Positions 5,463 through 58,597 of a stretch of 64,000 nucleotides of DNA are shown here, one piece after another; within the stretch, counting starts at the first letter, position 1; each line of letters starts with the position of its first letter. The stretch lies in the NCBI GenBank assembly GCA_035559235.1, contig DATMBM010000016.1:28431-92430 (forward strand), in the 5' to 3' direction. Source of the stretch: Minisyncoccota bacterium. GTDB lineage: Bacteria; Patescibacteriota; Minisyncoccia; Phycocordibacterales; UBA2100. The notes under the pieces were generated by a model, which worked only from the letters and a program-made list of their open reading frames with translations, was not told where the DNA came from and made no database searches. A program made the translations under genes and the position numbers.

Positions 5463-5502
5463 ATGTATCACTTTCTATACCATGGTATAGAAAGTGATAC
5501 AT
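5463..5502. promoter_or_regulatory. 40-bp perfect palindrome (atgtatcactttctatacc|atggtatagaaagtgatacat) in the promoter region of the hydrolase gene; candidate operator
   Basis: Read directly: both 20-nt arms are exact reverse complements, centred on CCATGG. It sits 75 bp upstream of the hydrolase start (5388) and 30 bp downstream of the regulator stop. A 20/24-matching half-site recurs at 6124-6147, overlapping the regulator start codon. Confidence 0.55.
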
Positions 5503-6147: not shown

Positions 6148-6166
6148 GAAGAAAACGGTGTAATAC

Positions 6167-6226
6167 AAAAACTCCCCGTACGGGGAGTTTTTGGTAACGC
6201 ACAAAGCCCCCTTTCGGGGGCTTTGT
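6167..6226 (-). terminator. two tandem hairpins between the PG-binding-protein gene and the regulator gene
   Basis: Hairpin 1 at 6167-6192 is aaaaa-ctcccc-gta-cggggag-ttttt, with A/T runs on both sides, so it could terminate in either direction. Hairpin 2 at 6200-6226 is cacaaagcccc-ctttc-ggggctttgtg. Both lie just downstream of the stop of the 6275..8308 gene. Confidence 0.6.
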
Positions 6227-6274
6227 GCTGCTTACGTAGAGCCTAGGTGCTACGAAGCATGTCGATCAAGAACG

Positions 6275-18250: not shown

Positions 18251-19303
18251 TTATGCATCACTCGCAAACGTCCGTTGCTCGCTCAAATCGCGGATGAGTT
18301 CCTGCAAGGTCGCGGCGACGGGAACGGAAAGGAGGATGCCCAAGAAGCCCGCCAGCTGCGCGCCGATAATGAGCCCCAAAATGACAAGGAGCGGCGGCAC
18401 GCCGACGACCTTCGTCACGACAAGCGGATAGATGAGGTGGTTTTCAAACTGCTGCAGGATGATATAGACGCCGATGACGACAAGTCCGAGGATGAGACCC
18501 CCGTCGGCAAATGCGATGAGAACGGCGGGCACAGCCGCGAGGGTCGGGCCGAACACGGGGATCAATTCGAAAAACGCGGCAAGCACGGCGAGAAGGAGCG
18601 CGTGCTTGATGCCGAGGATCGAGAGCGCGAGATAGACGAGAATGCCGATGATGACCCCGAGAAGCACTTGCCCCTGCATCCACAGGCCGATTTTCCGCTT
18701 CGAGCGCTCCCACAAATCCAGGACGTAGGCGCGGTACCGTTGCGGCGTGACCACGCGCAGGAAATCGTCGACGCCGGTCTCAGACATCGTGAAATAGAAC
18801 GAAAGGACGAGTATGAGGATGAACGAGAAGACGCCGCCGAAGAGCGTTGCGGCCGCGCCGGCGGCGCTTCCAAACGCGCCGCTCACCCGTAAGCTGTCGC
18901 GTGCCTGCGCGATCAAATCAGCCGGAGAGATGTTCGTCGGTGACGGCAGGCCGAGAATGTCGGCGTATTCGTTGTACGCGCCGAGCCGGTTGAGGAGATC
19001 GAGGTAACTTGGAAGCGCAGAAATGAAGCCCGTGAGTTCGTTCAAGACCGACGGCACGAAGACGTAAAAGAGGCCGCCGATGGAACTGAGCACGATGACG
19101 TAGAGAAGAATAACCGCAAGGATGCGTGGCATCCGCCAGCGCATAAAGGCACGCACCGCCGGATCCATCGCGGAGGCGATTACGACCGCCGTAAGCACGA
19201 TCAACACCAAATCGCGCAGGTACCAGACGAGCCACGCGCCCGCGAGGACGACCAGAGTCTTTACGATCGTGCCCGTCGTAATGGAGAATGTCTGCTCAGG
19301 CAT
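18251..19303 (-). CDS. AI-2E family transporter (PerM/YhhT-like permease)
   Basis: 350-aa polytopic membrane protein with the typical AI-2E family topology and motifs. Confidence 0.85.
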   Translation of the reverse strand: MPEQTFSITTGTIVKTLVVLAGAWLVWYLRDLVLIVLTAVVIASAMDPAVRAFMRWRMPRILAVILLYVIVLSSIGGLFYVFVPSVLNELTGFISALPSYLDLLNRLGAYNEYADILGLPSPTNISPADLIAQARDSLRVSGAFGSAAGAAATLFGGVFSFILILVLSFYFTMSETGVDDFLRVVTPQRYRAYVLDLWERSKRKIGLWMQGQVLLGVIIGILVYLALSILGIKHALLLAVLAAFFELIPVFGPTLAAVPAVLIAFADGGLILGLVVIGVYIILQQFENHLIYPLVVTKVVGVPPLLVILGLIIGAQLAGFLGILLSVPVAATLQELIRDLSEQRTFASDA

Positions 19304-19325
19304 ACTCCTATCGTATCATGTGAGA

Positions 19326-19408
19326 CGGGGTTGGGGCCCCGTCGCAAGATCGGAGCGCGTCGGCGCGAGGCGAGGTCGCGCACATTTTCAGCAGAAAATG
19401 ATGCGTGA
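19326..19408 (+). repeat. copy A of an ~83-bp structured repeat (ggggttggggccccg...gtcgcgcacattttcagcagaaaatgatgcgtgac), intergenic between the AI-2E transporter gene and glyQS
   Basis: ~90% identical to 23064-23146 in the same orientation. Contains a 7-bp hairpin cattttc-agca-gaaaatg. In copy B the stem is catcttc/gaagatg, a compensatory pair change. Confidence 0.7.
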
Positions 19409-19411
19409 CGA

Positions 19412-20725
19412 CTAACAGATGTATGAAGCGATGTCGGCTATTGGCACGCGTTCCTGCTCGCCCGAATCACGATCGCGCACGGTGACAATGTCTTTTTTGT
19501 CGTCACCGCCTTCACCGAGCGTGTCAAAATCAATGGTGATGCAGAACGGCGTCCCGATTTCGTCTTGCCGGCGATAGCGCTTCCCGATATTGCCGTTGTC
19601 GTCCCACATGATCTGCGGGATGTCTTTCTTGAGCATCTCGTAGACCTCGCGCGCTTTCGCGACCAAGTCCGGCTTGTTCTTAAGGAGCGGAAACACGGCG
19701 GCTTTTACCGGCGCAATCTCTTTCGGGAATGCGAGGTAGGTACGCGCCTCGCCGCCCATTTCATCCTCCTTGTACGCCGAGGCGAGAACCGCGAGGATAG
19801 TACGATCGACGCCAAACGACGGTTCGATGACGTGCGGCACGTATTTCTCGCCGCTTTCTTCATCCATAATCGACAGATCGACACCGGACATCCCCGCATG
19901 CGCCGTCAGGTCGAAATCAGTGCGGTACGCGAGGCCGTACAACTCTTTAACGCCAAAGGGATAGTCGAACTCAAAATCGATCGTTCGCTTGGAATAATGT
20001 GCGCGCTCGGTATCAGGTACTTCCAGCTCCGTTACCCTTTTGCCGTCGATGCCGACGCGCTCGATCCATGCATGCATGGCGTTGCGGAATTCCTCGAATT
20101 TCGCTTCCCAATCGCGCGGGTGCACGAAGTATTCGATTTCCATCTGCTCGAATTCACGCGAGCGGAAGACGAAATCGCGCGGTGCGATCTCGTTGCGGAA
20201 GGCTTTGCCGATTTGTCCGAGCCCAAACGGCATTTTCGGGTGTAGTGAATCGACAACGTTTTTGAAATTAACGAACATTCCTCCGGCCGTCTCCGGACGC
20301 AGATACGAAATTGATGATGCGTCTTCTGTCGCGCCGATGTGCGTCTTGAACATCATATTAAATTGCCGTGCCTCGCCGAGTTTTCCGCCGCATTCGGGGC
20401 ATGTTGTTTTGTCCTCCAGGTGATCTTCGCGAAATCGTCTCTTGCACTTTGTGCATTCCACCAACGGATCGGAAAAACCGCTCACGTGGCCCGAGGCCTC
20501 CCACACCTTCGGATGCATCAGGATGGCGGCGTCCATGCCGTACATATCATCGCGCTCCTGCACGAACATTCGCCACCAGAGGTTCTTGATGTTGTTCTTC
20601 AATTCGACGCCCATCGGGCCGTAGTCCCACGTGCCGGCGAGGCCGCCGTAAATTTCCGAGCCCTGGTAGATAAAACCGCGCCGCTTGGCGAGAGAGACAA
20701 TCTTTTCCATCGTTGCCTCGGACAT
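19412..20725 (-). CDS. glyQS: glycyl-tRNA synthetase, class II alpha2 type
   Basis: MEKIVSLAKRRGFIYQGSEIYGGLAGTWDYGPMGVELKNNI... is diagnostic of dimeric GlyRS. The likely start is the internal Met at 20725. Confidence 0.92.
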   Translation of the reverse strand: MSEATMEKIVSLAKRRGFIYQGSEIYGGLAGTWDYGPMGVELKNNIKNLWWRMFVQERDDMYGMDAAILMHPKVWEASGHVSGFSDPLVECTKCKRRFREDHLEDKTTCPECGGKLGEARQFNMMFKTHIGATEDASSISYLRPETAGGMFVNFKNVVDSLHPKMPFGLGQIGKAFRNEIAPRDFVFRSREFEQMEIEYFVHPRDWEAKFEEFRNAMHAWIERVGIDGKRVTELEVPDTERAHYSKRTIDFEFDYPFGVKELYGLAYRTDFDLTAHAGMSGVDLSIMDEESGEKYVPHVIEPSFGVDRTILAVLASAYKEDEMGGEARTYLAFPKEIAPVKAAVFPLLKNKPDLVAKAREVYEMLKKDIPQIMWDDNGNIGKRYRRQDEIGTPFCITIDFDTLGEGGDDKKDIVTVRDRDSGEQERVPIADIASYIC

Positions 20726-20791
20726 TCCGTGAGTGTACCTCAAAAGCGAAAATGACAAAATGTCCTTGTATTTCCAATCGTAAGAGCGAGC

Positions 20792-20883
20792 GCAGGTGTT
20801 TTTCAGGGTCTTCGCAGCGCCGACGGGCGCGAGACCGAGCGCTGGCGCAGCAGCGCCAGATGGCGACCCTGAAAAACACCTGC
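20792..20883. mobile_element. 92-bp MITE-like element: 19-bp perfect terminal inverted repeats (gcaggtgtttttcagggtc / gaccctgaaaaacacctgc) flanked by a 5-bp direct repeat CGAGC
   Basis: Read directly: TIRs at 20792-20810 and 20865-20883 are exact reverse complements. CGAGC sits at 20787-20791 and 20884-20888. Internal nested hairpins (gcgcc-gacg-ggcgc; ctggcgc-agca-gcgccag). It lies 7 bp after the stop of the upstream gene, in the glyQS leader. Confidence 0.5.
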
Positions 20884-20890
20884 CGAGCGA

Positions 20891-22924
20891 CTATTTCACA
20901 ACTGTCGCGTTTGCGGGCGTGAATCCTGGATCGGTGTTGATGTTCGTCGTGACGTCGGTGGCGCTGCGCGAGACCGTCTCCCCCGTCGCTTCGTCGATGC
21001 CGGTAAGCTGAATTGCGCGAATGAGGACCGGCTGCTGGCCAATTTGCGATGTGGAGGGCGTGATCGCGATATTGATGCCGAGCTGGCGCACCTGTATGCC
21101 CTCGGTCCCGGTGCCCGGCTCAATCGTCCCCAACCGCCACGTGAATGTGCCGTCGTTTTGGTTGAACGAGATGTCCGCGCTTGCGGGCGCAAAGATACCG
21201 GTCCAACGCACGTACGGCGGCAAAGCCGCCTTCACGACGGCATTCGTGATGCGGTTCGTGGTGTTGGTGACGCTCAGAACGATGCCGTAGGTCGTTTCTT
21301 CGCCGGCTTTCGGAGGGATAGGGCCGCTTGAGGAGAGTGGGTTCGAATAGTAGAGGCCCTGCGCAATGAGCTGCAGGTCGCTTGCGACACGGATCGTCTG
21401 CGAAGCGGTGGACTGCAGGGTCTCGGGCACATCGCGCTCCGCGATGCGCCGCCCGGCCGCCTGGACGCTTATCGTGACTTTCGGATCGCGCAGGCCGCGC
21501 AGTTCGTCGTTTGACGGCACTGAGAATGAAAAACTGACGGTCCCGCGCGCGCCCGGTGCGAGCGATGCGAGGGAACCATTCGTCGTCGACTTGTCCCACA
21601 AGACGACACGGTCGCTCGAGCGATAGAAGCCGTCGTTCGTGCGCACCGTCGTGCCGTCGATTTCAATGCCGCTCAACTGCGCAACGATGACCGCGTCGAT
21701 AATCGGCGTCGAGAGGTTGTTCTGCCACTGCACTGCGACGTTCACCGTCTCTCCCGGACCTGCAATCGCGCCGCTCGCCCCCTGGTCCTTGTTCACGTCG
21801 ATGGTGAGGCCGAGGAATGGATTCGAGACGGTGACGTGATGCGCGTAATCGGCAAGAACGGCATCAATTGCCGTTTTTTCCTCCGAGGTGCGCGTGCCGG
21901 CCGTAAAGCGAATGACGCGCTCATCTCCGCTTTCGCCCAGGACGCTGCCGCGCACCAAGACGCTCTTCTGCTGCCCCGGCGCAAGGTCGCCGAGCGCCCA
22001 CAAGTTCCGCGATCCCGCAACGGGCTGCGGGTCGGCGTGTGAAAGCGTAAAGCCGAACGGGAAATTGATATTGAGGAGCACATCCTTTACCGGCGCCTCC
22101 GCATTCGACGCGACAGTCGCCGTAAATTCAACCGGCTGCCCTGAAATTGTTTCGCTATTGCCTTCAATGGAGAGCGAGATCGGTGACGAGGAGAACATGA
22201 TCTGGTAGTCGGTCGAGGAGACGAAAATGGCGCTCGAGCCCGCAAGGCGATATTCGAGTTCAACCTTGACGGTCGCGCGCTCGCCTTCCTGCCCGGCAAA
22301 AACCGCCGAAATCGTGCCGCGCCGCTGTCCACCCGGCTCAATCGTGCCGAGCGATTCGCGCAAGTCGGGCAAGCTCGTCGTAAGATCATTGACCGAACGC
22401 GTACCCTTCGGAAATGTGACGACCAGGTCGGCAAGTTCAAGCGGCACGCGGTTGCGGTTTACGATTGCGATCTGCAATTTCGTGGGCGTGCCGCTTTGCA
22501 CCTGCAGCGGCCCTGAGACGACGATGTCGATATTGCCGGGAGAGGCGGGAACGCTCCCGCCGCCGAGAAAAAAGTAATACGCCAGAAAACCTCCCGCCCC
22601 CACTCCGAAGGCAACCCCGGCATAGATGAGCCACTGCACGAGCACGCGCATCACGTGCAACTTCTTTGGTGCGGCAATCGTGCCGGTAAACGGGCTGTCG
22701 TCGGGGTGCTGCCAGTCCTCGCCGATTGGCGGCGTCCCAGCCTCAAGTTCATGGCGCGGCTTCTCCTTGATGTTCGGTTCCAGCGCGCGGCTGTACATCG
22801 CGCGCCGCAGACGTTCTATCTTTTCCTTCTCATGGTCGCTCTCCACCTGCCCGTCTCGACTCGCGTCACGTGATGCGGGCGGCTCGACGCCCTCAAAAGG
22901 AACATGAGGTTTTTCCTCAGGCAT
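20891..22924 (-). CDS. large membrane-anchored surface protein with repeated Ig-like / DUF11-type beta domains (677 aa)
   Basis: Charged cytoplasmic N-terminus, one TM helix (VLVQWLIYAGVAFGVGAGGFLAYYFFL), then ~550 aa of beta-rich repeats. Confidence 0.65.
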   Translation of the reverse strand: MPEEKPHVPFEGVEPPASRDASRDGQVESDHEKEKIERLRRAMYSRALEPNIKEKPRHELEAGTPPIGEDWQHPDDSPFTGTIAAPKKLHVMRVLVQWLIYAGVAFGVGAGGFLAYYFFLGGGSVPASPGNIDIVVSGPLQVQSGTPTKLQIAIVNRNRVPLELADLVVTFPKGTRSVNDLTTSLPDLRESLGTIEPGGQRRGTISAVFAGQEGERATVKVELEYRLAGSSAIFVSSTDYQIMFSSSPISLSIEGNSETISGQPVEFTATVASNAEAPVKDVLLNINFPFGFTLSHADPQPVAGSRNLWALGDLAPGQQKSVLVRGSVLGESGDERVIRFTAGTRTSEEKTAIDAVLADYAHHVTVSNPFLGLTIDVNKDQGASGAIAGPGETVNVAVQWQNNLSTPIIDAVIVAQLSGIEIDGTTVRTNDGFYRSSDRVVLWDKSTTNGSLASLAPGARGTVSFSFSVPSNDELRGLRDPKVTISVQAAGRRIAERDVPETLQSTASQTIRVASDLQLIAQGLYYSNPLSSSGPIPPKAGEETTYGIVLSVTNTTNRITNAVVKAALPPYVRWTGIFAPASADISFNQNDGTFTWRLGTIEPGTGTEGIQVRQLGINIAITPSTSQIGQQPVLIRAIQLTGIDEATGETVSRSATDVTTNINTDPGFTPANATVVK

Positions 22925-22949: not shown

Positions 22950-23609
22950 CTAGAGATGCGTCTCTGAAATGGCCTTATTCACCGATGAAAGCAATTTTTG
23001 TCGGCCCGCCTCGACTTCTGAGAGTTCCGGCAGCCCGTATGCCGCGTGCGTGAAGAGTGAGGTGGGGTTGGGTCCCCGACGCAAGGCCGGAGCGCGACGG
23101 TGCGAGGCGGGGTCGCGCACATCTTCAGCAGAAGATGATGCGTGACCGTTGCCGAGCGCGTCTGCCGAAAGATAACCCAGCGCGTAAAGGATGCGCGCGA
23201 CGCAAAGCAGTTCGATCGTCGCCTGCGTCTCGCGCGGCGCTTCGAGAAGCGTGCGCCGTGCCTCAACAAGCGCCCGATATAGATATTCGTTTTTCTCCTC
23301 GCCCGCGATCAGGCGGTCCGCCAAATTCGCAATGCGCGCGAACACGGCCGCTGCCGCTTCCGGCATACTTGTTTCCGAAAGCGCCATCGCACCGACGACG
23401 CGCCAGCCGCTCACCCCGCGCACCAGCGCGACATTTGCTTGCGCGTAATTCTGGAGGGCATAGCGCATGCGTGACGATTCACGCCGCACCGCAGAGGCAC
23501 GCGCCCACACCAAGCCGAACGCTTCCGTGTAGAGCGCGAAAACGCGGTCGGCCTCTCCCCGCTCGTAACTGCGCAAGACAAGGGCTTCTGTTTGGTATTT
23601 CTGGTACAT
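22950..23609 (-). CDS. recO: DNA repair protein RecO (219 aa), carrying an in-frame copy of the ~83-bp repeat in its C-terminal region
   Basis: N-terminus MYQKYQTEALVLRSYERGEADRVFALYTEAFGLVWARASAVRR matches the RecO OB-fold domain. Repeat copy B (23064-23146) lies inside the ORF and is translated as ...GNGHASSSAEDVRDPASHRRAPALRRGPNPTS.... Confidence 0.8.
   Translation of the reverse strand: MYQKYQTEALVLRSYERGEADRVFALYTEAFGLVWARASAVRRESSRMRYALQNYAQANVALVRGVSGWRVVGAMALSETSMPEAAAAVFARIANLADRLIAGEEKNEYLYRALVEARRTLLEAPRETQATIELLCVARILYALGYLSADALGNGHASSSAEDVRDPASHRRAPALRRGPNPTSLFTHAAYGLPELSEVEAGRQKLLSSVNKAISETHL
23064..23146 (+). repeat. copy B of the ~83-bp structured repeat, embedded in-frame in recO
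   Basis: Aligned by eye to 19326-19408: ~74/83 identical. Hairpin preserved by compensatory T>C / A>G changes. Confidence 0.7.
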
Positions 23610-23611
23610 GG

Positions 23612-26600
23612 TTATTCGCGCGCGAGCTTCAATGCGACGTCGTAGTCGCCGATTTTCTGGCGCGTACCATGCACTGTACCAAAACCGATGGTCGCATGCG
23701 TCGTCTCGGCGATCGTGGTCTTGTTCCGCTCGATCAGTTCTTGTCCCTTCGGCGCATCAATCGTGAGCGTTACCGTATCGCGCGGATCGAGCCCCGCGTC
23801 CTTGCGAGCGCCCTGTATCGCGCGGATCAGCTCGCGTACGAAACCCTCTTCTTTCAGCTCTGCGGTGATTTCAGTATCCAATTGAATGTCTTCTGCGATA
23901 TCAGCCTGCTCGACTCCTTTTACATTCACCTCATCGCGAATGACTTCAAGCAGTTCGTCGGAGAGCCCCGCATGCTTGATGACGAGTTTTTTGAGCGGTT
24001 GGCGCACTTTGATGCCCGCCTTGTCGCGCGCCTCGAGCGCTTTTGAGACGATCGCGCGGACTTTCGCCATGTCCTCGAGGATTAGGTCTTGCTTGTGACC
24101 GCCAAAAAGTCTCGAGAAAAAACCAGTGCTGTGCGGCTCCGGCCACGACTCAAGGTGCACGCTTCCACCGCCTTCAATGCCGCGGTAGATGGAATCTGCG
24201 AGAAAAGGAGCAATCGGCGCCATAAGCTTCGCGAGCGTAAGCAGGACTTCCCGCTGCGTCGCAAGTGAATGGTGCTTGTCGTGCCATTCTCCCTTGACGC
24301 GCTCGCGCGAGCGACGCACGTACCACGTCGAATAATCGTCAACAAATTCACGGAGCGCGCGGCACGCACGCGGCGTGTCGTAGGCGTCCATCGCCTCGGT
24401 CACGTCCGCCGTCACTTCGTCGAGCCGCGCGAAGATCCACCGGTCAAGGACATGTTCGCTCGCGCGCGGCTTTGTGATGCCATCGTACTCCCGCTGGTAC
24501 AAATCAAAGAATTTGAACGTATTCCACAAAATGCCGATCACGCGATTGTGCGCGTCGCGCACGTCCTCGTCGCGGAACCGCAAATCTTCCGCCTGCATCA
24601 CTGGAGACGACATCAGATACAGGCGCAGTGCGTCGGAGCCGTAGCGGTCGACCAATTCCAAAGGGTCGGTGTAATTGCGCTTGGATTTCGAGATCTTCTC
24701 GCCATCCGCCGCAAGAATGGTGCCGGTTGAGACGACGGTGTGGAATGCAAGACGGTTGAACAGCAGGACTCCCATCGCGTGCATGTAGTAAAACCACGTG
24801 CGAGTCTGCGCAATGTATTCAGCAATGAAATCCCCGGGCGCGCGCTTTTCGAATTCGTCTTGGTTTTCAAACGGATAGTGGTATTCCGCGAAGGGCATCG
24901 AGCCGCTCTCCACCCAGCAGTCGACGACTTCCGGAATGCGGCGATATTCCTCACCGTCATCGCCAATAAGGACTAAATCGTCAATGTACGGCCGGTGCAG
25001 GTCGAGTTCGAATTCGGCATTCCACGGCATCGGGGCGAAATCGAATGCTTCCACCTTCCCCTTCTCCGGATACTCTGCGCTTCTCCGCATAACAGTTTCC
25101 TCCTTTGATAGGCCGCGCGCAGCTGATTTCAAAAGCCACAATGGCGTTCCGTGCGAGACGATCAAGATGTGTTCACCGTGGTGCGTTGCTTCCAGCTCAT
25201 GCATGAAGGCCATCATCCGCTTCTTGATGTCGGTGTAGGTTTCTCCGCCTTTTGGCGCTTTCGTAAAGCGATCCATCTTGTCCGGAAACGCCGCATGATA
25301 CTCCTCGAGTGTTTTGCCGCTGTATTCGCCGAACTGCGACTCGCCGATTCTCCCATCGACGACGACGCGGTCGTGCGGAATGCCGAGCGCTTCGGCAATG
25401 ATCTGAGCCGTCTCGCGCGTCCGCTTGAACGGTGACGCATATACGTATCCGATGTTCTTCTCGCGCAACTTTTCAGCCGCTTCGCGCACCTCTGCCTTGC
25501 CTTCTTCGGTAAGATGGATGTCCGCATCGACATCAGACGACACGATATCTTGCACATTGTTGTCGGCGCGTCCGTGGCGCATCACGAAATAGGTATTGCC
25601 GCTCTTTTTGACGCGCTGCCGTATCTCCTCAACCGATCCCACCACCATCACCTTTCCCTCTTTCGATTTCCAGATTGGCAAAGGCGAGGCCCAGAACCGA
25701 TTGCGCGAAATCGTCCAGTCCGGCGCATTCTCGACGATGTTGTAGAAACGGCCGTGCTTCAGATGGTCTGGCACCCAATTCACCTTCTCATTTTCGGAGA
25801 GCATCTTCGCTTTCACCTTCTGGATATTGATGAACCACGACGAGACGGCGTTGTAGATAAGGGGTGTGCCGCAGCGGTAGCAGTGCGGGTAGGAGTGCGT
25901 GTGATTTTCTCGTTTAAACAGGAGGCCGCGCTCCTGCAAATCGCGCTTGATGTCTTTCTCAGCGTCTTTTATGTATTTTCCGCGGATAAATTCCGGTACC
26001 TGATCGTTGTACGTGCCGTTCGGGTTCAGGAGCTGCACCATCGGAAGCCCTTCTTTTTGTCCGAGCACAAAGTCATCCTCGCCATACATCACCGCCGTGT
26101 GCACAATGCCGGTTCCCTCGTCGGTCGAGACGAATTCGGCCGCGTACACTTTGTATGACTTTTCTAATTTCAGCGCTGGCACCTCAAAGAGTGGCTCGTA
26201 TTCAAGACCAATCAGATTTTTGCCCGAAAATTCGTATCCTGAATTAGGATCACTGAGACCGAGCGCTGGCATCCGCTCTTTTGCGACCAAATAATATCTT
26301 CCCGGTTCGTATTGAACAGCACGATAACTTATGTCTGCACCCACAGCTAATGCCACGTTTCCAGGCAAGGTCCACGGAGTTGTTGTCCACGCGAGGAGAT
26401 GTACGTCCTGCCCAATACCGAGTTCAAATAATTTTGGAGTGGGTCTGACCTTGAACTTCACCGTCACCGCTTCCTCGGTGATATCTTCGTATGTATTGTC
26501 CTGAGCGATTTCCGCTTTCGCAAGCGGCGTCTCGCAATGCGGGCAATACATGAGGACTTTGCGCCCCTCGTAGAGCAAATCTTTCTCCCACAATTGCTTG

Positions 26601-27085
26601 AGTGCCCACCAGACAGACTCGATGTACGTGTTGTCCATCGTCTTGTACGAGTTGTCATAATCAACCCAGCGACCGATCCGATCGATATACTTTTTCCATT
26701 CGTCCACGTATTTCAAGACCATCGACCGCGCCTTCTCGTTGAAAGTCGCGATGCCGATGTCGAGGATATCTTTTTTTGTCTTAAGTCCTAGTTCTTTCTC
26801 GACGAGCGATTCGATCGGGAGTCCGTGCGTGTCCCATCCCCAACGACGTCGGACACGATAGCCGCGCATGGTCTTGTAGCGCGGAATGACGTCCTTAATT
26901 ATCGAAGATAATAAGGAGCCATGGTGAGGAAGCCCTGTCGCAAACGGCGGACCATCGTAAAAAACGAACTCTCCCTTTGGTGACTTCTTTTCTAGACTCC
27001 GTTCGAATGTCTTGTTTTCCCGCCAAAAAGCGAGTATGTCCTCCTCGCGCTTCGCCGTTTCGCTTTTGCCGCCCTGTTCAGCCAT
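23612..27085 (-). CDS. ileS: isoleucyl-tRNA synthetase (type 2-like) carrying a ~200-aa histidine-phosphatase (PGAM-like) domain inserted in the catalytic core
   Basis: HIGH region PPFATGLPHHG; WTISRNRFWASPLPIW; CWVESGSMPF; KMSKS-equivalent KISKSKRN; C-terminal anticodon-binding region. Between ...IWKSKEGKVMVVGSVEEIRQRV and ...EEYRRIPEVVDCWVESG lies VMRHGRADNN...SPFKRTRETA...ILIVSHGTPLW, the RHG...R...H...SHG histidine-phosphatase signature. The likely start is MAEQGG at 27085; the ORF extends to 27217. Confidence 0.93.
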   Translation of the reverse strand: MAEQGGKSETAKREEDILAFWRENKTFERSLEKKSPKGEFVFYDGPPFATGLPHHGSLLSSIIKDVIPRYKTMRGYRVRRRWGWDTHGLPIESLVEKELGLKTKKDILDIGIATFNEKARSMVLKYVDEWKKYIDRIGRWVDYDNSYKTMDNTYIESVWWALKQLWEKDLLYEGRKVLMYCPHCETPLAKAEIAQDNTYEDITEEAVTVKFKVRPTPKLFELGIGQDVHLLAWTTTPWTLPGNVALAVGADISYRAVQYEPGRYYLVAKERMPALGLSDPNSGYEFSGKNLIGLEYEPLFEVPALKLEKSYKVYAAEFVSTDEGTGIVHTAVMYGEDDFVLGQKEGLPMVQLLNPNGTYNDQVPEFIRGKYIKDAEKDIKRDLQERGLLFKRENHTHSYPHCYRCGTPLIYNAVSSWFINIQKVKAKMLSENEKVNWVPDHLKHGRFYNIVENAPDWTISRNRFWASPLPIWKSKEGKVMVVGSVEEIRQRVKKSGNTYFVMRHGRADNNVQDIVSSDVDADIHLTEEGKAEVREAAEKLREKNIGYVYASPFKRTRETAQIIAEALGIPHDRVVVDGRIGESQFGEYSGKTLEEYHAAFPDKMDRFTKAPKGGETYTDIKKRMMAFMHELEATHHGEHILIVSHGTPLWLLKSAARGLSKEETVMRRSAEYPEKGKVEAFDFAPMPWNAEFELDLHRPYIDDLVLIGDDGEEYRRIPEVVDCWVESGSMPFAEYHYPFENQDEFEKRAPGDFIAEYIAQTRTWFYYMHAMGVLLFNRLAFHTVVSTGTILAADGEKISKSKRNYTDPLELVDRYGSDALRLYLMSSPVMQAEDLRFRDEDVRDAHNRVIGILWNTFKFFDLYQREYDGITKPRASEHVLDRWIFARLDEVTADVTEAMDAYDTPRACRALREFVDDYSTWYVRRSRERVKGEWHDKHHSLATQREVLLTLAKLMAPIAPFLADSIYRGIEGGGSVHLESWPEPHSTGFFSRLFGGHKQDLILEDMAKVRAIVSKALEARDKAGIKVRQPLKKLVIKHAGLSDELLEVIRDEVNVKGVEQADIAEDIQLDTEITAELKEEGFVRELIRAIQGARKDAGLDPRDTVTLTIDAPKGQELIERNKTTIAETTHATIGFGTVHGTRQKIGDYDVALKLARE

Positions 27086-27108
27086 GTCGCGTATCGTAGC
27101 AAAGGGCG

Positions 27109-28128
27109 TCACTCTGCGCGAGACGTCTTCAGCCGTTTCTCCTTTTCGTGCCGCTCGATGGCGAGCCGGATGAGTGTGTCGATGAGTTTTGGGTAGGGCA
27201 TCCCCCACTCCTCCCACATCTTCGGATACATACTAATCGAGGTGAAGCCGGGGATGGTGTTGATTTCATTGACGAGCACTTTACCGAGCTTGGTGACGAA
27301 GAAATCAACTCGAGCCATCCCCTCGCAGCAGAGCGTCTTAAACACGAGCACGGCCATCCTTTGAATTTCCTTTACCCTTTTCTTCGGCAAATGTGCCGGA
27401 ATTTGAGGGATCATCGCCTCCGGGTCGAGGTATTTTGCCTCGTACGAATAAAACTCGCTGTTGAGTACCAATTCCCCCGGCACCGACGCAACCGGCCTCT
27501 CATTGCCAAGAACCGAACATTCGATCTCGCGGCCGTCGACAAACTCCTCGACGAGGATTTTCGTATCGTATTCGAATGCATGCCTCAGCGCCGCATTAAA
27601 TTCTTTTTCATTCCGTACTTTCGAGACACCGACCGACGAGCCGAGATTCGCAGGTTTTACGAACATCGGCAATCCTAATTTCTTCTTCGCGTCGGCAAAA
27701 CGAATCTTTTCGTGCGAATGAACAACGGCAAATCTCGCAATCGGAATTCCCGCATCGCGCAGAAGCCGCTTCATTACATCCTTGTCCATCCCGACTGCAG
27801 AACCAAGAACCCCTGCGCCTACAAACGGTACGTCCGCCAATTTCAAAAGCCCCTGCACCGTGCCGTCTTCGCCAAATGGTCCATGCAAGACTGGGAAGAC
27901 CACATCGAAGGTGTGCAAAAATCCAAAAATATCTTCGACACGCCTACCTGTTTCCAATAGTGATTCTTTCGCATACTTCCACACGCCCTTTGTATCAATG
28001 CACACCGTTCCAATGTCGTATTTCCTCCGATCGAGCGCCCTCACGACATTCCGTGCAGAAAGAATCGAAACTTCGTGCTCCGCCGACTTTCCGCCAAACA
28101 GTACCGCAATCCGTAGTTTCCGCTTCAT
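27109..28128 (-). CDS. ddl: D-alanine--D-alanine ligase
   Basis: MKRKLRIAVLFGGKSAEHEVSILSA... with an ATP-grasp fold; typical Ddl length of 339 aa. Confidence 0.92.
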   Translation of the reverse strand: MKRKLRIAVLFGGKSAEHEVSILSARNVVRALDRRKYDIGTVCIDTKGVWKYAKESLLETGRRVEDIFGFLHTFDVVFPVLHGPFGEDGTVQGLLKLADVPFVGAGVLGSAVGMDKDVMKRLLRDAGIPIARFAVVHSHEKIRFADAKKKLGLPMFVKPANLGSSVGVSKVRNEKEFNAALRHAFEYDTKILVEEFVDGREIECSVLGNERPVASVPGELVLNSEFYSYEAKYLDPEAMIPQIPAHLPKKRVKEIQRMAVLVFKTLCCEGMARVDFFVTKLGKVLVNEINTIPGFTSISMYPKMWEEWGMPYPKLIDTLIRLAIERHEKEKRLKTSRAE

Positions 28129-28153: not shown

Positions 28154-28765
28154 TTACACCAAACGCTCACCAAGCCGGTCAAGCGGTTCATGGAAATCCT
28201 TGATAACCTTCCCATTTCGGACAACGCTCCAGTCGCCAAAATTGTTACGCTTCAAGCGACTGTACACATCCTGTTCTCCCTGCAGCTCCGCAATGTACAT
28301 GTTCATCGTATATCCGTGACCGACAAACAAAATCTTCCTATTGTGATTTTCGGCATCGACAATCCCCACCTTTGTGGTGAACCGCTCTCGAGCGCTGGCC
28401 GCTGATTCCCACTTTCCGTCGTTGGCCTTAACCTCAGGATGCGTCAAGGCTTCTTTCGCAGTCGCTTCGTAAGTGTCGTGATCCATGAAATCGCCTTTGT
28501 CCCTATCCATTTCCGCGATTTCGCTGGAATACATGACTTCGAATTTTCTATTGGCTTCGCGCAATGTATCCAAAAGCGGCGCAATCGTTTGTTGCGCCTT
28601 CTTCTCAGTTGAAATGATGAAGATATCAACGTCGTGGAAAAATGTATTCTGCGCTATATCCTGCGCCTGCCGTGCGCCTTCCGTAGTCAAATCCCATTCG
28701 CTGATCGGCGTATCTTTATCAACTTTTGTTTCCCCATGCCGCAGGAAAATCAATGTGTTGTTCAT
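28154..28765 (-). CDS. histidine phosphatase family protein (phosphoglycerate-mutase-like), stand-alone
   Basis: LIFLRHGETKVD... (RHG catalytic motif) and ...ILFVGHGYTMNMY (second His). The start at MNNTLIFL overlaps the argS stop by 4 bp. Confidence 0.78.
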   Translation of the reverse strand: MNNTLIFLRHGETKVDKDTPISEWDLTTEGARQAQDIAQNTFFHDVDIFIISTEKKAQQTIAPLLDTLREANRKFEVMYSSEIAEMDRDKGDFMDHDTYEATAKEALTHPEVKANDGKWESAASARERFTTKVGIVDAENHNRKILFVGHGYTMNMYIAELQGEQDVYSRLKRNNFGDWSVVRNGKVIKDFHEPLDRLGERLV

Positions 28766-30441
28766 ACTTTCTCCGGCGCGGGAATGCCAAGGAGCCACAA
28801 GCCATTCTTGAGCGTGAGGCGCGTGATGTCAGCCACCGCGACTTTGTGCGCAGCCGCCGGAGTACCATCGAGGATCTGTTCTTTCGCGTACCAGCTGTTG
28901 AATGCGGACGCTATCATGATCAGATAATTAGCAACAATATGCGGCTCGAGCTGTTCCTGCGCCCGCACGACGGTCTCATAGAATCGGTAGACAAGGCGTG
29001 TTAGATCACTCGGCGGAGCGCCCGCGTCGAATTTCCCCTTCACTTTCGCCTCCTTCGCCTTTTCCATGATCGCGTGACAGCGTGCGTGCGTGTACTGGAG
29101 ATACGGCCCGGAGTCACCTTCGATCGAGAGCGCCTGCTCGCGGTTAAACACAATATCTTTTCCCATCGCGCCTTTCAGGATTTGGAATTTAATCGCCGCG
29201 ACGGCGATGTCTTGTGCGAGCTTTTCCTTATCTCGCGCGCGGCTCTCCGCCGCGCGCGCCTTTGCCACGTCGGCCAAATCCTCAATCAACGATTCTCCGG
29301 TGACGACATTGCCCGTGCGCGAGGACATCTTTCCTTCCTGTAGGCGCATCATCCCGTGCGAGACATGTCTCGTTTTTGCGGCGAGCTCCGGAAAGACTTC
29401 GCTCATCGCCGCAAGGAGCACCTTGAAATACTCGTTAATCTCATTGCCGGTGACGATCACCGACGTGTCGTACTTGAATGTGTCATACTTCATCTTCGAG
29501 AGCCCCAATTCTTTCGCCTCATACGTCGGCAGGCCTTCTGAATTCAGGAAGACGCGGGTGTGCAACCCTTTCTTTTCGCCGTCGTAGACGATGGCACCTT
29601 CGCTTTCCTTGAAAACGCCGTCTGCGACGTGTTTCTCAACCACCTGTTTGCCAAACGGCCCGGTCTCACTCTCGAAAAAATAGTAATCAAATTTCGTGCC
29701 GAGAATGTCGTACAGCTCCTCGAAATGCGCAAGTGACGTCTTTCGCCCTTCGTCGTACAGCTTGGTGATCGCCTTGTCGGAACGCTCGTACACCTTTTTG
29801 TTGATCGCGGTAATTTCTTCTTTTACCGGCGAACCATCGACATCCGCGGCCGCGCCTGCTGCATACGCGCGTCCCAACGCTTTCACATCCTTCGCACTTT
29901 CTCCGCTCTGCAGCAGCCCCCAAATTGCGCGCGCAACATGACGGCCAACATCGCCCTGGTAATTAGCGCGCTTCACGGTGGCGCCGGAAAACGCGAACAG
30001 GCGCGAAATGCTCTCGCCAATCGCGTTCGTTACGAGGTGGCCGATGTGGAATTCCTTAAATGGATTCGGGTCGGTGTATTCCACGATCACTTTCTTTCCC
30101 TTTAGACCGACGCCGCTGCCCCATTTCTCGCCATGCTTCCGTCCGATTTCCAGCATCTCATACAGATATTCCGGTGAGAGCGTGAAATTGATGAATCCTG
30201 GACCGGCGACTTCGACGCTCGCAACACCTTCGGCGTCGCGAACGGCCGCAGCGAGCTGTTCCGCAAGCTCGCGCGGGTTTTTCCCGAGCTGTTTTGCGTA
30301 AACGAGTGCGACATTTGAAGCGTAATCGCCGTGAGAAAGGTCGGCCGTATGTTCGAGCACAATGTCTTCGGGGACGACGGAACTACCCGCCCCGGCGAGT
30401 GCCTGTGCGAGTCGTTCACGAATTGAGGAAACGGGGTCCAT
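28762..30441 (-). CDS. argS: arginyl-tRNA synthetase
   Basis: N-terminal Arg_tRNA_synt_N-like domain, HIGH-equivalent region (PNPFKEFHIGHL), C-terminal DALR anticodon-binding domain. Confidence 0.93.
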   Translation of the reverse strand: MDPVSSIRERLAQALAGAGSSVVPEDIVLEHTADLSHGDYASNVALVYAKQLGKNPRELAEQLAAAVRDAEGVASVEVAGPGFINFTLSPEYLYEMLEIGRKHGEKWGSGVGLKGKKVIVEYTDPNPFKEFHIGHLVTNAIGESISRLFAFSGATVKRANYQGDVGRHVARAIWGLLQSGESAKDVKALGRAYAAGAAADVDGSPVKEEITAINKKVYERSDKAITKLYDEGRKTSLAHFEELYDILGTKFDYYFFESETGPFGKQVVEKHVADGVFKESEGAIVYDGEKKGLHTRVFLNSEGLPTYEAKELGLSKMKYDTFKYDTSVIVTGNEINEYFKVLLAAMSEVFPELAAKTRHVSHGMMRLQEGKMSSRTGNVVTGESLIEDLADVAKARAAESRARDKEKLAQDIAVAAIKFQILKGAMGKDIVFNREQALSIEGDSGPYLQYTHARCHAIMEKAKEAKVKGKFDAGAPPSDLTRLVYRFYETVVRAQEQLEPHIVANYLIMIASAFNSWYAKEQILDGTPAAAHKVAVADITRLTLKNGLWLLGIPAPEKV

Positions 30442-32980: not shown

Positions 32981-33088
32981 CTTAACTACGCGACGGATTG
33001 TAGGGCAGATTGCGCCGAAAGTCAAGCGAGAGCGCTCAGCGCCCGCACCTCTCCAAGGAGAGGTGCGGGCGCATTCGTTACACATCCA

Positions 33089-33883: not shown

Positions 33884-34046
33884 GCGCATGCGGCGCTCAC
33901 CGCCCATTTGTTCATCCATATATACTCGTATGAAAACGAATGGTTATTAATGTGATACTAAAATGGTAGCACGACCATGTGCCTTCATACGACGTTCACC
34001 GTTGATATGTCTTACTTCCGGCTGGTGCTCTTTATTCGTATATAAC

Positions 34047-34076
34047 GACGCGGCCGCCCTTCGGGGCGGCCGCGTC
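34047..34076 (-). terminator. perfect GC hairpin (gacgcggccgccc-ttcg-gggcggccgcgtc) downstream of the DUF378 gene
   Basis: 13-bp perfect stem, 15 bp after the stop of 34091..34333(-). One of several GCGGCCGC-containing palindromic terminators in the window. Confidence 0.55.
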
Positions 34077-34090
34077 TTCATGAAAAACAC

Positions 34091-34333
34091 CTACATCATT
34101 CCACCCGGATTGCACATGCGGCAATCGCTCTTGTGCGTGAAGACAAGATAGACCGCCGAGAGACCGACGAGGAGGTACACAAGGCCCTCGACCATCGGCC
34201 AGGCTCCGAGGACGAGATTAACGAGGTTCCAGTTTCCGCCGAGGAAACCTCCCAGTCCGACGAGCCCCCAATTGAGCGCTCCAACCATGGCAAGGACGAA
34301 TGTGACCATGTGCAGCGTCTTATTTCCTTTCAT
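34091..34333 (-). CDS. DUF378-family small membrane protein
   Basis: VLAMVGALNWGLVGLGGFLGGNWNLVNLVLG matches the DUF378 consensus (NWGLVG...NLV). Confidence 0.75.
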   Translation of the reverse strand: MKGNKTLHMVTFVLAMVGALNWGLVGLGGFLGGNWNLVNLVLGAWPMVEGLVYLLVGLSAVYLVFTHKSDCRMCNPGGMM

Positions 34334-55622: not shown

Positions 55623-55784
55623 TGAAGGAGAAATGAAATTTCAGCATAAAATGAAGTTTGCGCCGTAGCAAAAGAAATTTTTTCGTGCACACTTTAGAGC
55701 AGAACACAAAAAATACATTGCGTATTGGATACGCAATGCTAAGGTGGGAAAAGACATTCGAATGCGTTGAAAATCGAATGATGT

Positions 55785-55925
55785 CGGAGAAGCACATCTC
55801 CGAGCAATAGCTTTCAATGGATCATCGAAAGTCGGATAGTACCTGAGGAGAGGGGCAGCAAACAGCCCAAGGGCGGCAACCGCCGCCATCCTTGGTGAAA
55901 TCCTGACATGCTCGGAGATGTGCGC
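55785..55925. ncRNA. candidate structured RNA: 15-bp perfect long-range stem (55792-55806 / 55909-55923) enclosing ~100 nt with nested hairpins, in the 400-bp pilB-ruvB intergenic region
   Basis: gcacatctccgagca … tgctcggagatgtgc are exact reverse complements. Interior has ctttc…gaaag, ggcgg-caa-ccgcc and other stems. The region is markedly less GC-rich than the flanking genes. Confidence 0.3.
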
Positions 55926-56017
55926 CTCTGACGTTCTCTTTCTCTTCGGCGCGAAAGCGCAAAAGAAAAAGAGGCGTTCTTGAGACGCCACTCTACTGGC
56001 TAGTGTAGCATACTAGA

Positions 56018-57394: not shown

Positions 57395-57922
57395 ATGGCT
57401 GGACACAACAAATGGGCACAAATCAAGCGGCAAAAGGGCGCAAATGACGCGGCGCGAGGCGCCTTGTTTGGAAAGCTAGCCCGTCGCATTACCGTTGAGG
57501 CGAAAAAAGCGGGAGGCGACCTCAACTCTGCTTCGCTTCGCGCCGCGATTGAAAAAGCGAAGGCGGCAAACATGCCAAAAGAGAACATCGAGCGTGCGGT
57601 CTCGAAAGCCACGGCGGGTGGTGCTGATATGGAGAGCGTCATCTACGAAGCATACGGCCCCGGAGGCGCCGCCGTCATCATCGAAGCGCTCACCGACAAC
57701 AAAAACCGCACGCTTCAGGATCTGAAGGCGATATTCGCCAAACACAACATCAATCTTGCCGCACCAGGCTCCGCGCTGTGGGCATTCACCAAAACGGAGC
57801 AGGGCTACCAGCCGAATGCCACCGTCCCTCTCTCGGAGGAAGATGACGCGGCGTTGATGAAAATCATGGAATTAATCGATGCGCTCGATGACGTGGAAGA
57901 AGTGTATACCAATGCGCAATAG
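57395..57922 (+). CDS. yebC: YebC/PmpR-family protein, short form (175 aa)
   Basis: MAGHNKWAQIKRQKG…KLARRITVEAKKAGGD… N-terminal signature and …DALDDVEEVYTNA C-terminus. The middle domain is abbreviated relative to ~245-aa YebC. Confidence 0.88.
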   Translation: MAGHNKWAQIKRQKGANDAARGALFGKLARRITVEAKKAGGDLNSASLRAAIEKAKAANMPKENIERAVSKATAGGADMESVIYEAYGPGGAAVIIEALTDNKNRTLQDLKAIFAKHNINLAAPGSALWAFTKTEQGYQPNATVPLSEEDDAALMKIMELIDALDDVEEVYTNAQ

Positions 57923-57989: not shown

Positions 57990-58559
57990 GTGAGATACGC
58001 CGCCTTCTGTGCCGCACTCTGCGCGGGTTCGATCGCGTTCGCCGAGCCTTCTGCGCAGCCGTTCCAGAAAACGTACGGGGATGCGGTCCCATTTTCAGGC
58101 GCAATACAATTTTGCGATTCCTACCCTCAAGAATGCGTGCCGCAAGGCACAACGGAGCGACTTGTCGCAACAAAAGAGTTGTTCGAGCTTCTTGCGGGCA
58201 TCAACCGAGATGTCAACAAGACAATCGAAGGCACAGTCGAAAGAGAAGAATGGTGGTCCATTCCCGCCAACGGAAAGGGGGACTGCGAGGATATTGCGAT
58301 ACTGAAACGACATATCCTGATACGGCTTGGCCTGCCGTCCGGCGCCCTCTTGCTGGCGGTCGTGCGCGACGAAGACCAAAACGGCCATGCCTTGCTCATT
58401 GTCAGGACAACGGTCGGCGATTTCGCCCTGGATAACAAGATTATGGAGGTGGTGCCGTGGCACGCGCTTCCGTACCGCTGGCTCCAGCGCCAGTCGATCC
58501 ATGACCCTCGGCTGTGGCGCATGTTGGAGGCGCCGGTAACGGCATCCGCTCGCAAATAA
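57990..58559 (+). CDS. secreted transglutaminase-like cysteine peptidase (BTLCP / COG3672-like)
   Basis: Signal peptide (MRYAAFCAALCAGSIAFA). …NGKGDCEDIAILKRHIL…NGHALLIVRT…D… gives the Cys-His-Asp triad arrangement of BTLCP. Confidence 0.72.
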   Translation: MRYAAFCAALCAGSIAFAEPSAQPFQKTYGDAVPFSGAIQFCDSYPQECVPQGTTERLVATKELFELLAGINRDVNKTIEGTVEREEWWSIPANGKGDCEDIAILKRHILIRLGLPSGALLLAVVRDEDQNGHALLIVRTTVGDFALDNKIMEVVPWHALPYRWLQRQSIHDPRLWRMLEAPVTASARK

Positions 58560-58561
58560 GA

Positions 58562-58597
58562 GGCGGCCGCGCACCTACGCGGCCGCCTTCTTTTTTT
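58562..58597 (+). terminator. rho-independent terminator (ggcggccgcg-caccta-cgcggccgcc + TTCTTTTTTT)
   Basis: 10-bp perfect GC stem immediately after the BTLCP stop, followed by a 10-nt T-rich tract. Confidence 0.8.

Follow-up and report, generated by a model that had tools for sequence, protein, structure and literature searches.

A GC-rich palindrome between a surface-protein gene and glyQS in a Minisyncoccota genome: a probable diverged member of a small family of multi-hairpin insertion repeats

The DNA considered here is a stretch of 64,000 nucleotides from a Minisyncoccota bacterium (assembly GCA_035559235.1, contig DATMBM010000016.1), referred to in its full length as the window, and the element in question is a 92-bp palindrome at 20792-20883, named Y1. 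The genes around it are all on the minus strand, in the order IleRS, recO, surface protein, Y1, glyQS, AI-2E transporter and MetRS (Table 1). The geometry reported in the first-pass annotation was reproduced: the open reading frame (ORF) of the large surface protein ends 7 nt from the nearer arm, the arms at 20792-20810 (GCAGGTGTTTTTCAGGGTC, plus strand) and 20865-20883 are complementary at 19 of 19 positions and separated by 54 nt, and the interior holds two further perfect hairpins, which read GCGCC-GACG-GGCGC (20817-20830) and CTGGCGC-AGCA-GCGCCAG (20842-20859) on the plus strand. Folding of the minus strand, which that annotation had proposed as a check, gave a stable Y shape of an outer stem and two hairpins at -59.7 kcal/mol, against -60.4 kcal/mol for the plus strand (z ~ -7.4 vs shuffles). 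All predicted pairs are Watson-Crick and folding is near-equal on either strand, which suits a palindrome at the DNA level no less well than an RNA specific to one strand. The Y1 spacer has the highest folding-energy density among the 27 window spacers of at least 60 nt. Y1 is 66% G+C, with T5 within the 5' arm and A5 within the 3' arm, and is non-coding. Its only ORFs are the spurious mirror-image ones already pointed out, two GTG-start frames at 20796..21011 (+) and 20547..20879 (-) that both read FFRV after the start, and the public assembly calls no ORF over it.

Family-model searches covered 168 kb of related DNA; labels beginning with L or P denote related loci, of which L022 and L029 are Kaiserbacteria-like genomes. 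A covariance model built from the Y1 92-mer alone (R1) matched L022 11358-11445 over its full length (29.7 bits, E = 7e-4). This copy, L022Y, is located in the glyQS/AI-2E spacer in the orientation opposite to the genes. Across its full length it agrees with Y1 at 52 of 88 aligned positions, and the local alignment of the two reached z = 11.4, with 0 of 3000 shuffles scoring as high. GGGTCGC, the hairpin A loop TGCT, the junction CGCTCsGTyTC, hairpin B (GCGC(C)-CGTC-(G)GCGC) and TGCrAAGACCC are common to both. The hairpin A stem is wholly different yet paired in each (CTGGCGC/GCGCCAG in Y1, ATTTTTC/GAAAAAT in L022Y), and the outer arms of L022Y (CATGC..GGGGGTC / GACCCCC..GCATG) are unrelated to those of Y1. 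L022Y also has no matching flanking repeat, which bears out an earlier caveat that the CGAGC repeat beside Y1 might be absent from other copies. A second model (R2), built from Y1 and L022Y, found no further copies of this subfamily in the 168 kb. A 50-aa public ORF call at L022 11362-11514 runs over L022Y and is probably spurious.

A second group of copies was recognized from Y2, a 90-nt sequence in the glyQS/AI-2E spacer of the window that starts 2 nt past the glyQS stop and ends 4 nt before the AI-2E -10 box. L022Y and Y2 aligned locally at z = 8.2 (0 of 3000 shuffles as high), and the direct alignment of Y1 with Y2 gave p = 0.026. Using Y2 as the nhmmer query, positions 3287-3381 of L029 were matched at E = 7e-17, inside recO, and a further copy lies in-frame within recO of the window. 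On folding, Y2-type copies form three consecutive hairpins and are without terminal inverted repeats. When RecO proteins were aligned, only the window and L029 showed the in-frame insert, 29-33 aa long (GHASSSAEDVRDPASHRRAPALRRGPNP); L031, L022, L028, L030, L024 and L025 lack it. The window and L029 are non-sister lineages, and no more than 9 nt separate their recO insertion points. Among the three Y2-type copies of these two genomes, each ~91 nt long, pairwise identity is 86.8-89.0%, vs 63% (upstream) and 71% (downstream) in the recO sequence on either side of the two recO copies, a contrast that is the signature of a propagating, selfish, non-autonomous element.

In an alignment of five copies, 98% of the cells form a standard pair and 8 of the 11 pairs have changed on both sides; none of 500 shuffles reached the observed covariation, and slid controls were low. 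The hairpin A loop TGCT is invariant in the five copies while 6 of its 7 stem pairs have changed on both sides. The hairpin B loop CGWC is conserved, with compensatory changes in 2 of 4 scored pairs. From these comparisons the family appears to be defined by its core of two hairpins with conserved loops and junction, not by terminal repeats, and the stems appear free to vary provided that pairing is kept. The copies lie just past stop codons and ahead of the -10 of the next leaderless gene, or in-frame within an ORF (recO). The three in the window all fall within 4 kb, for which a rough estimate under random placement is ~0.01.

Nine relatives keep the gene order recO - surface protein - glyQS - AI-2E - MetRS. 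Measured between the stop codon of the surface-protein gene and the ATG of glyQS, the spacer is 165 nt in the window, 24 nt in L031, P0002 and L030, 25 nt in L029, 36 nt in L022, 45 nt in P0012, 80 nt in L024, -4 nt (an overlap) in L025 and 209 nt in L028; P0002 and P0012 were used for spacer lengths only. A neighbour-joining tree of four concatenated proteins had the topology (((window, L031), L022), (L029, L028)), L030, L024, L025, with 100% bootstrap for the relevant clades. Given this tree and the short L031 and L022 spacers, the two closest relatives of the window are empty at the Y1 site; a search for such empty sites had been suggested beforehand. All three window sites (Y1, Y2, recO) are empty in the sister genome L031, where the glyQS/AI-2E spacer is 24 nt. 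The first-pass annotation had set against its own proposal the case of a single copy whose identical sequence stands at the orthologous site of relatives. What was found differs, with diverged family copies elsewhere and the L031 site empty. Family copies are present or absent between close relatives, and the comparison supports Y1 as a lineage-specific insertion. The nearest relative is only 83% identical to the window in the protein adjacent to Y1, and an 'excised' window spacer gave no significant alignment to the 80-nt L024 spacer (p = 0.48).

The L028 spacer orthologous to that of Y1 holds a different Y-shaped palindrome of 103 nt (L028 4639-4741), 9 nt past the stop, with 25-nt arms that are 84% complementary, 53 nt between them, and flanks GATTGT/GCTTGT matching at 5 of 6 positions in register; the site is empty in the sister L029. 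Its comparison with the family gave p = 0.005 to 0.27 with ambiguous orientation, and the architecture is alike. A canonical hairpin followed by a T-run also occurs in the Y1-orthologous spacer of L028 (4759-4793) and L027 (2153-2186). The L028 and L022 elements had no Rfam match.

The CGAGC motif adjoining both ends of Y1 had been read as a target-site duplication (TSD). Its presence at both ends stands; the interpretation as a duplication does not fit the surroundings as well. The 165-nt spacer has, in gene orientation, three occurrences of CGCTCG(G), one of them within Y1, and two of GGCGCTGC; it contains 11 repeated 6-mers vs 3.4 expected (p = 0.004). The first 23 nt past the stop, TCGCTCGGCAGGTGTTTTTCAGG in the window and CTGTGCGGCAGCGTTTTTTAAGG in L022, agree in register at 15 of 23 positions (permutation p = 2.5e-4, the best among 15 pairs compared), and 16 nt of the stop-side arm of Y1 align in register with native L022 spacer. 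In L022 this native stretch adjoins the -10 box, and it shows homology to the T-tract of the L024 promoter, with 16 of 23 positions matching. The L031 spacer reads TAG-G-CGGCAG-TGCGG-TACGCT. Because CGGCAG, placed directly past the stop, is native in L031 and L022, the supposed junction between TSD and terminal inverted repeat (TIR) of Y1, CG/GCAG, falls inside a native hexamer. The stop-side arm of Y1 therefore looks like largely native spacer DNA, and no counterpart of the promoter-side arm was found in any relative compared. The L029 recO copy has an imperfect 9-bp flanking repeat (TTCGACACA/CTCGGAACC, 6/9). Compared across copies, the 19-nt arms are not a feature of the family, and the 5-bp flanking repeat does not appear to be one.

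The position of Y1 relative to glyQS was examined from start-site motifs. TAnnnT hexamers of the -10 type (for example TATAAT, TACAAT and TAAAAT) stand 5-8 nt before the ATG at no fewer than 14 of 67 window ORF starts (>=14), vs ~3 expected, including those at 22924, 20725, 19303, 31089, 31658, 41889, 46690, 57301, 57395 and 58819. This suggests that leaderless mRNAs are widespread in this genome of an uncultured, ultra-small bacterium of the Candidate Phyla Radiation (CPR). The -10 layout before glyQS is kept in seven relatives (L022, L024, L027, L028, L029, L030 and L031), and we infer that glyQS is transcribed as a leaderless mRNA from its own promoter downstream of Y1. With the promoter there, Y1 belongs to the 3' flank of the surface-protein gene and is outside any glyQS leader. 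The earlier placement of Y1 in that leader is contradicted by TACACT 6 nt before the glyQS ATG, which puts Y1 upstream of the promoter. A riboregulator of glyQS meets the same objection and had no Rfam match, and a long-stem terminator is not favoured either, as the sequence after the stem is GCUCGCUCUUACG, with no U-tract, and a terminator scan of 20300-21400 returned no terminator-like site at Y1. The absence of a T-box consensus was confirmed: no T-box or other cis-regulatory Rfam match was obtained around Y1 at E <= 10, and the whole window at gathering score gave nothing but 7 tRNAs.

Table 1. Coordinates of Y1, its parts, related copies and neighbouring genes in the window, with strand and remarks or basis.
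Feature	Position	Strand	Remark or basis
Y1 outer arm, stop-codon side (5' arm in gene orientation), GCAGGTGTTTTTCAGGGTC	20865..20883	-	Complementarity to 20792-20810
Y1 outer arm, promoter side (3' arm in gene orientation), GACCCTGAAAAACACCTGC	20792..20810	-	Exact inverted copy of the stop-side arm
Y1 conserved core, GGGTC ... hairpin A ... CGCTCGGTCTC ... hairpin B ... TGCGAA GACCC	20806..20869	-	Homology to L022:11372-11431(-)
Hairpin A, CTGGCGC-TGCT-GCGCCAG	20842..20859	-	Folding prediction
Hairpin B, GCGCC-CGTC-GGCGC	20817..20830	-	Folding prediction
Flanking CGAGC, stop-codon side, part of native-looking TCGCTCGGCAG	20884..20888	.	Read from sequence
Flanking CGAGC, promoter side	20787..20791	.	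Read from sequence
Y2, 90-nt family copy, glyQS/AI-2E spacer	19320..19409	-	nhmmer and profile matches
Y2-type copy within recO, in-frame, adds ~29 aa (NGHASSSAEDVRDPASHRRAPALRRGPNP)	23057..23147	-	nhmmer match 23056-23146, E = 4e-15; profile E = 7e-30
glyQS -10-like TACACT, 6 nt before ATG 20723-20725 (TACACT-CACGGA-ATG)	20732..20737	-	Inferred promoter, leaderless mRNA
IleRS	23612-27217	-	
recO	22950-23609	-	
Surface-type protein, DUF11/NPCBM_assoc, 677 aa	20891..22924	-	Own -10 TAAAAT, 6 nt before ATG (TAAAAT-GCGCGA-ATG)
glyQS-type glycyl-tRNA synthetase, 437 aa from ATG at 20725	19412..20725	-	Public gene call begins 20710
AI-2E transporter	18251-19303	-	

Further copies of Y1 and of its arms, expected by the first-pass annotation if Y1 were a MITE (miniature inverted-repeat transposable element), were sought in the window and in public collections. 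The exact 19-mer arm gave 13 matches in 185,579 species-representative genomes (596 Gb), 7 in JGI metagenome contigs and 0 in IMG/VR viral contigs. Each of these 20 matches is a lone arm in an unrelated taxon, without a partner within 300 nt, and they are at chance level. Allowing up to 3 mismatches, only the two arms themselves matched in the window (100 shuffles gave 0), and blastn-short of the 102-mer against the window gave no second Y1 copy. BLASTN of Y1 against plasmid and phage collections returned marginal partial matches only, and six-frame peptides of Y1 and the L028 element had no match at E <= 10 among 5.8 billion protein clusters. Of 1.84 billion representative proteins, a single spurious tandem-repeat protein, and no real relative, matched the recO-insert peptide; in viral contigs, a degenerate pattern of 33 nt derived from the Y2-type consensus had 0 matches. 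A look for a transposase with matching TIRs had also been proposed. No transposase, integrase or RAYT (REP-associated tyrosine transposase, where REP stands for repetitive extragenic palindrome) domain was found among the ~56 window ORFs with Pfam, nor was such a gene present in the gene tables of the fetched related loci. Two short matches to parts of Y1 were seen inside the window. The Y1 interior at 20831-20846 is identical over 16 nt (GAGACCGAGCGCTGGC) to IleRS coding sequence at 26255-26270, 5.4 kb apart (BLAST E ~0.001-0.003); this match does not extend and may be filler DNA or chance. A 12-nt stretch of the Y1 arm, AGGTGTTTTTCA, recurs at 34079-34092, adjoining a hairpin at 34042-34081 (BLAST E ~0.3-0.9), probably by chance.

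Taken together, Y1 probably belongs, as a diverged copy, to a small family of GC-rich, non-coding repeats with several hairpins and low copy number in one Kaiserbacteria-like clade (Paceibacteria, CPR), akin to REP sequences, Rickettsia palindromic elements (RPEs) or MITEs and arrived as a lineage-specific insertion. The family is best read as new, within the known kind of small palindromic insertion repeats. Propagation would be as a non-autonomous element, through an enzyme acting on it. A core of ~60-66 nt, from (CA)GGGTC to GACCC(TG) with approximate ends, would have inserted beside the native T-tract, and the promoter-side arm of Y1 would have been made during insertion or later as an exact inverted duplicate of the native flank, for instance through fold-back or template-switch synthesis. 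The surface-protein transcript would then end in a stem-loop of ~-60 kcal/mol, and this 3' structure could block 3' exonucleases, protecting the end of the surface-protein mRNA, and could impede read-through into glyQS, itself expressed from its own -10 as a leaderless mRNA. Several observations weigh on the other side. Copy number is low in the 168 kb searched with family models; neither the 19-mer arm, sought in the three public nucleotide collections, nor Y1 and the L028 element, translated in six frames and compared with proteins, disclosed another copy, and the recO-insert peptide had no real match; and no transposase, RAYT or integrase is at hand in the window or related-locus gene tables. 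The known copies are all in one conserved gene cluster, so that local duplication or gene conversion could explain them. The alignments fix neither the exact element ends nor target-site duplications, the link between Y1 and the Y2-type copies passes through the single intermediate L022Y (direct Y1 vs Y2, p = 0.026), the proposed effect of Y1 on RNA is a prediction, and most relatives do without an element at that site.

A bolder version of this interpretation was considered, in which structure-defined mobile palindromes, forming a hitherto undescribed family in the CPR/Patescibacteria, keep their loops and junctions while the stems covary freely, take their outer arms from the target or match them to it, insert directly behind stop codons or in-frame, can lengthen into larger perfect palindromes by inverted copying of the flank, and are moved by an enzyme that recognizes hairpins in single-stranded DNA. 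We regard it as a tentative possibility, rather more doubtful than true.

Three other explanations were weighed against the same observations. As a classical MITE, Y1 would have been derived by deletion from an insertion sequence, leaving 92 bp with 19-bp TIRs for a DDE transposase acting in trans, and insertion at GCTCG would have duplicated 5 bp. The perfect inverted repeat with an exactly adjoining 5-bp direct repeat is what such an element should show, the orthologous sites in relatives are empty, its size and stable folding are as listed for prokaryotic MITEs (PMC10969869), and the L028 element at the same site has its own 5/6 flanking repeat, GATTGT/GCTTGT. Against this, the homologous L022Y has different outer arms, the TSD/TIR junction lies within native CGGCAG with 16 arm nucleotides aligning to the L022 spacer, and CGCTCG is found three times in the spacer. 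No second arm copy exists in the window, the 596 Gb of genomes, the JGI metagenomes or IMG/VR beyond the 20 lone-arm matches, the window has no transposase, and 66% G+C contrasts with typically AT-rich MITEs (PMC10969869). We consider this explanation unlikely. What survives of the first-pass MITE proposal is a propagating palindromic insertion belonging to a repeated family with empty sites; terminal repeats and a target duplication as hallmarks, and copies of the 92-mer, do not.

Selection in place would make Y1 a terminator, insulator or 3'-end stabilizer of the surface-protein gene, or a glyQS regulator, with its relatives as functional paralogues. Covarying stems with conserved loops and junctions would suit such a role, as would the location of both Y1 and Y2 between a stop codon and the next promoter, the different Y-shaped palindrome in the orthologous spacer of L028, the canonical hairpin and T-run at the Y1 site in L027 and L028, and the use of long perfect GC hairpins at gene ends in this genome. 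But one copy is an in-frame part of recO, a place in which neither a terminator nor a regulator would be meaningful, and at least seven of nine relatives have spacers of only -4 to 80 nt and lack the element. The missing U-tract, a glyQS that appears leaderless with its promoter downstream of Y1, the lack of any Rfam match, and Watson-Crick pairs throughout with -59.7 vs -60.4 kcal/mol by strand, as for a DNA palindrome, also argue against it, and the explanation is improbable. Purely local rearrangement without mobility is less probable still: it would have the native T-tract spacer duplicated in inverted form in situ by template switching, together with reiterated GC-rich filler, and the likeness among copies produced by local copying or gene conversion within the 4-kb cluster. 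It draws on the homology of the stop-side arm to native spacer DNA, the excess of short direct repeats (GGCGCTGC twice, CGCTCG three times), the 16-nt exact patch of the Y1 interior that is also in IleRS coding sequence 5.4 kb off, and the confinement of all window copies to 4 kb. Against it, the Y1 core is closest to L022Y, in another genome, spacer and orientation (z = 11.4), not to its neighbour Y2 (p = 0.026), and the two window copies (Y2 and recO) resemble the L029 recO copy as much as they resemble each other, with host genes far more diverged. Two further identities were rejected. The core motifs of hammerhead or other three-way-junction ribozymes were absent on inspection, and there was no Rfam match. 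The attC sites of integrons end in RYYYAAC/GTTRRRY; the ends of Y1 misfit this consensus by inspection, and no integrase was found.

Taking Y1 as a member of a propagating palindromic family, the nearest known systems can be compared. REP elements are 20-40 nt palindromes, bear at one end a GTAG or CGTC tag that is unpaired, lie mostly just downstream of coding regions and sometimes in DNA repair genes, and their dimers add 20-30 aa (PMC3733652). The family resembles REPs and their compound forms (bacterial interspersed mosaic elements, BIMEs, and REP doublets forming hairpins, REPINs) as small GC-rich hairpin repeats past genes, some of them intragenic, with varying stems, a kept structure and combination into larger hairpins. 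It differs in that the aligned copies, on inspection, have no terminal GTAG/CGTC tag (CGTC here is the hairpin B loop), the units are 60-90 nt with 2-3 hairpins vs 20-40 nt, the copy number is very low in the DNA searched, and no gene for a RAYT, an IS200/IS605-like Y1 transposase, is present in the window or fetched loci. RPEs make in-frame insertions (PMC10969869), and the likeness to them is that of ~100-nt palindromic repeats in a reduced genome, both in spacers and in-frame in housekeeping genes with a peptide added; an in-frame insert absent from orthologues is seen for the recO copy of the family and not for Y1 itself. Sequence and host phylum are unrelated, one in-frame target gene is known vs 44 genic RPE integrations in R. 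conorii, and the recO-insert peptide is without a match in other proteins. With prokaryotic MITEs (Correia, ERIC, Nezha, QMITE) Y1 shares a length below 500 bp, terminal inverted repeats, a flanking direct repeat, a spacer site and a very stable transcript fold, whereas its terminal repeats are not common to the family, it is GC-rich, the flanking repeat is ambiguous and no parent insertion sequence is known. Pneumococcal SPRITEs, rho-independent terminator-like repeats, are alike in sitting at gene ends and resembling terminator hairpins, and pneumococcal repeats are also clustered; Y1 differs from them and from intrinsic terminators in that its stem is followed by no U-tract. The literature searches made turned up no account of MITE-, REP- or RPE-like repeats in CPR/Patescibacteria.

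CPR bacteria have very small, gene-dense genomes. A propagating hairpin element, if true, would serve as a useful marker for the dynamics of genomes among these uncultured bacteria, being in-frame in a DNA-repair protein, between stop codons and leaderless promoters, and kept in structure via compensatory changes, and the family would offer a handle for finding its mobilizing enzyme. For annotation, it would explain spurious ORFs such as the 50-aa frame over the L022 copy and the long spacers beside glyQS, and a false lead, a T-box-like glyQS leader, is removed. As to the origin of the genes, the surface protein is identical to a 'Candidatus Paceibacterota bacterium' protein (VNM40_03775) from a metagenome-assembled genome, and a Logan contig (SRR7882662) encodes it with a spacer 100% identical to that of the window. 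The surface proteins of P0123 to P0128, closer relatives, are 74-80% identical. The closest non-self relatives of the GlyRS are 82-86% identical, and its named best homologues are from Candidatus Kaiserbacteria and related CPR groups (Minisyncoccia, Pacebacteria, Adlerbacteria).

Other features of the window were recorded. The IleRS measures 1201 aa as the longest ORF (1157 aa as called in Logan), and a His_Phos_1 (histidine-phosphatase) domain, at aa 544-707, is embedded in its class I synthetase domain. L022, L024, L030 and the P0012 contig share the fusion, which the IleRS of L025 (952 aa) lacks; a separate His_Phos_1 gene is near IleRS at 28154-28798 (-). A perfect 40-bp palindrome at 5463-5502 (ATGTATCACTTTCTATACCA / TGGTATAGAAAGTGATACAT), between divergent ORFs, could be an operator or bidirectional promoter region. 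Long perfect GC-rich spacer hairpins with 12-15 bp stems and tetraloops are at 6166-6193, 6199-6228, 33039-33072, 34042-34081 and 58554-58595, some of them flanked by A/T tracts on both sides and resembling bidirectional intrinsic terminators. An inverted repeat at 55783-55806 / 55909-55932 (24-nt arms, 88% complementary, 102 nt between) lies upstream of ruvB in a region, 55700-56017, with no Pfam-annotated ORF and no Rfam match, which may be an unannotated structured RNA; a 13-mer common to the 55783-55932 repeat and the arms of the L028 palindrome was dismissed as chance level (E = 0.23). The YebC/TACO1-like ORF at 57395-57922 (175 aa) may be truncated or interrupted, its best stretch covering positions 1-55 of a 160-position second/third-domain profile.

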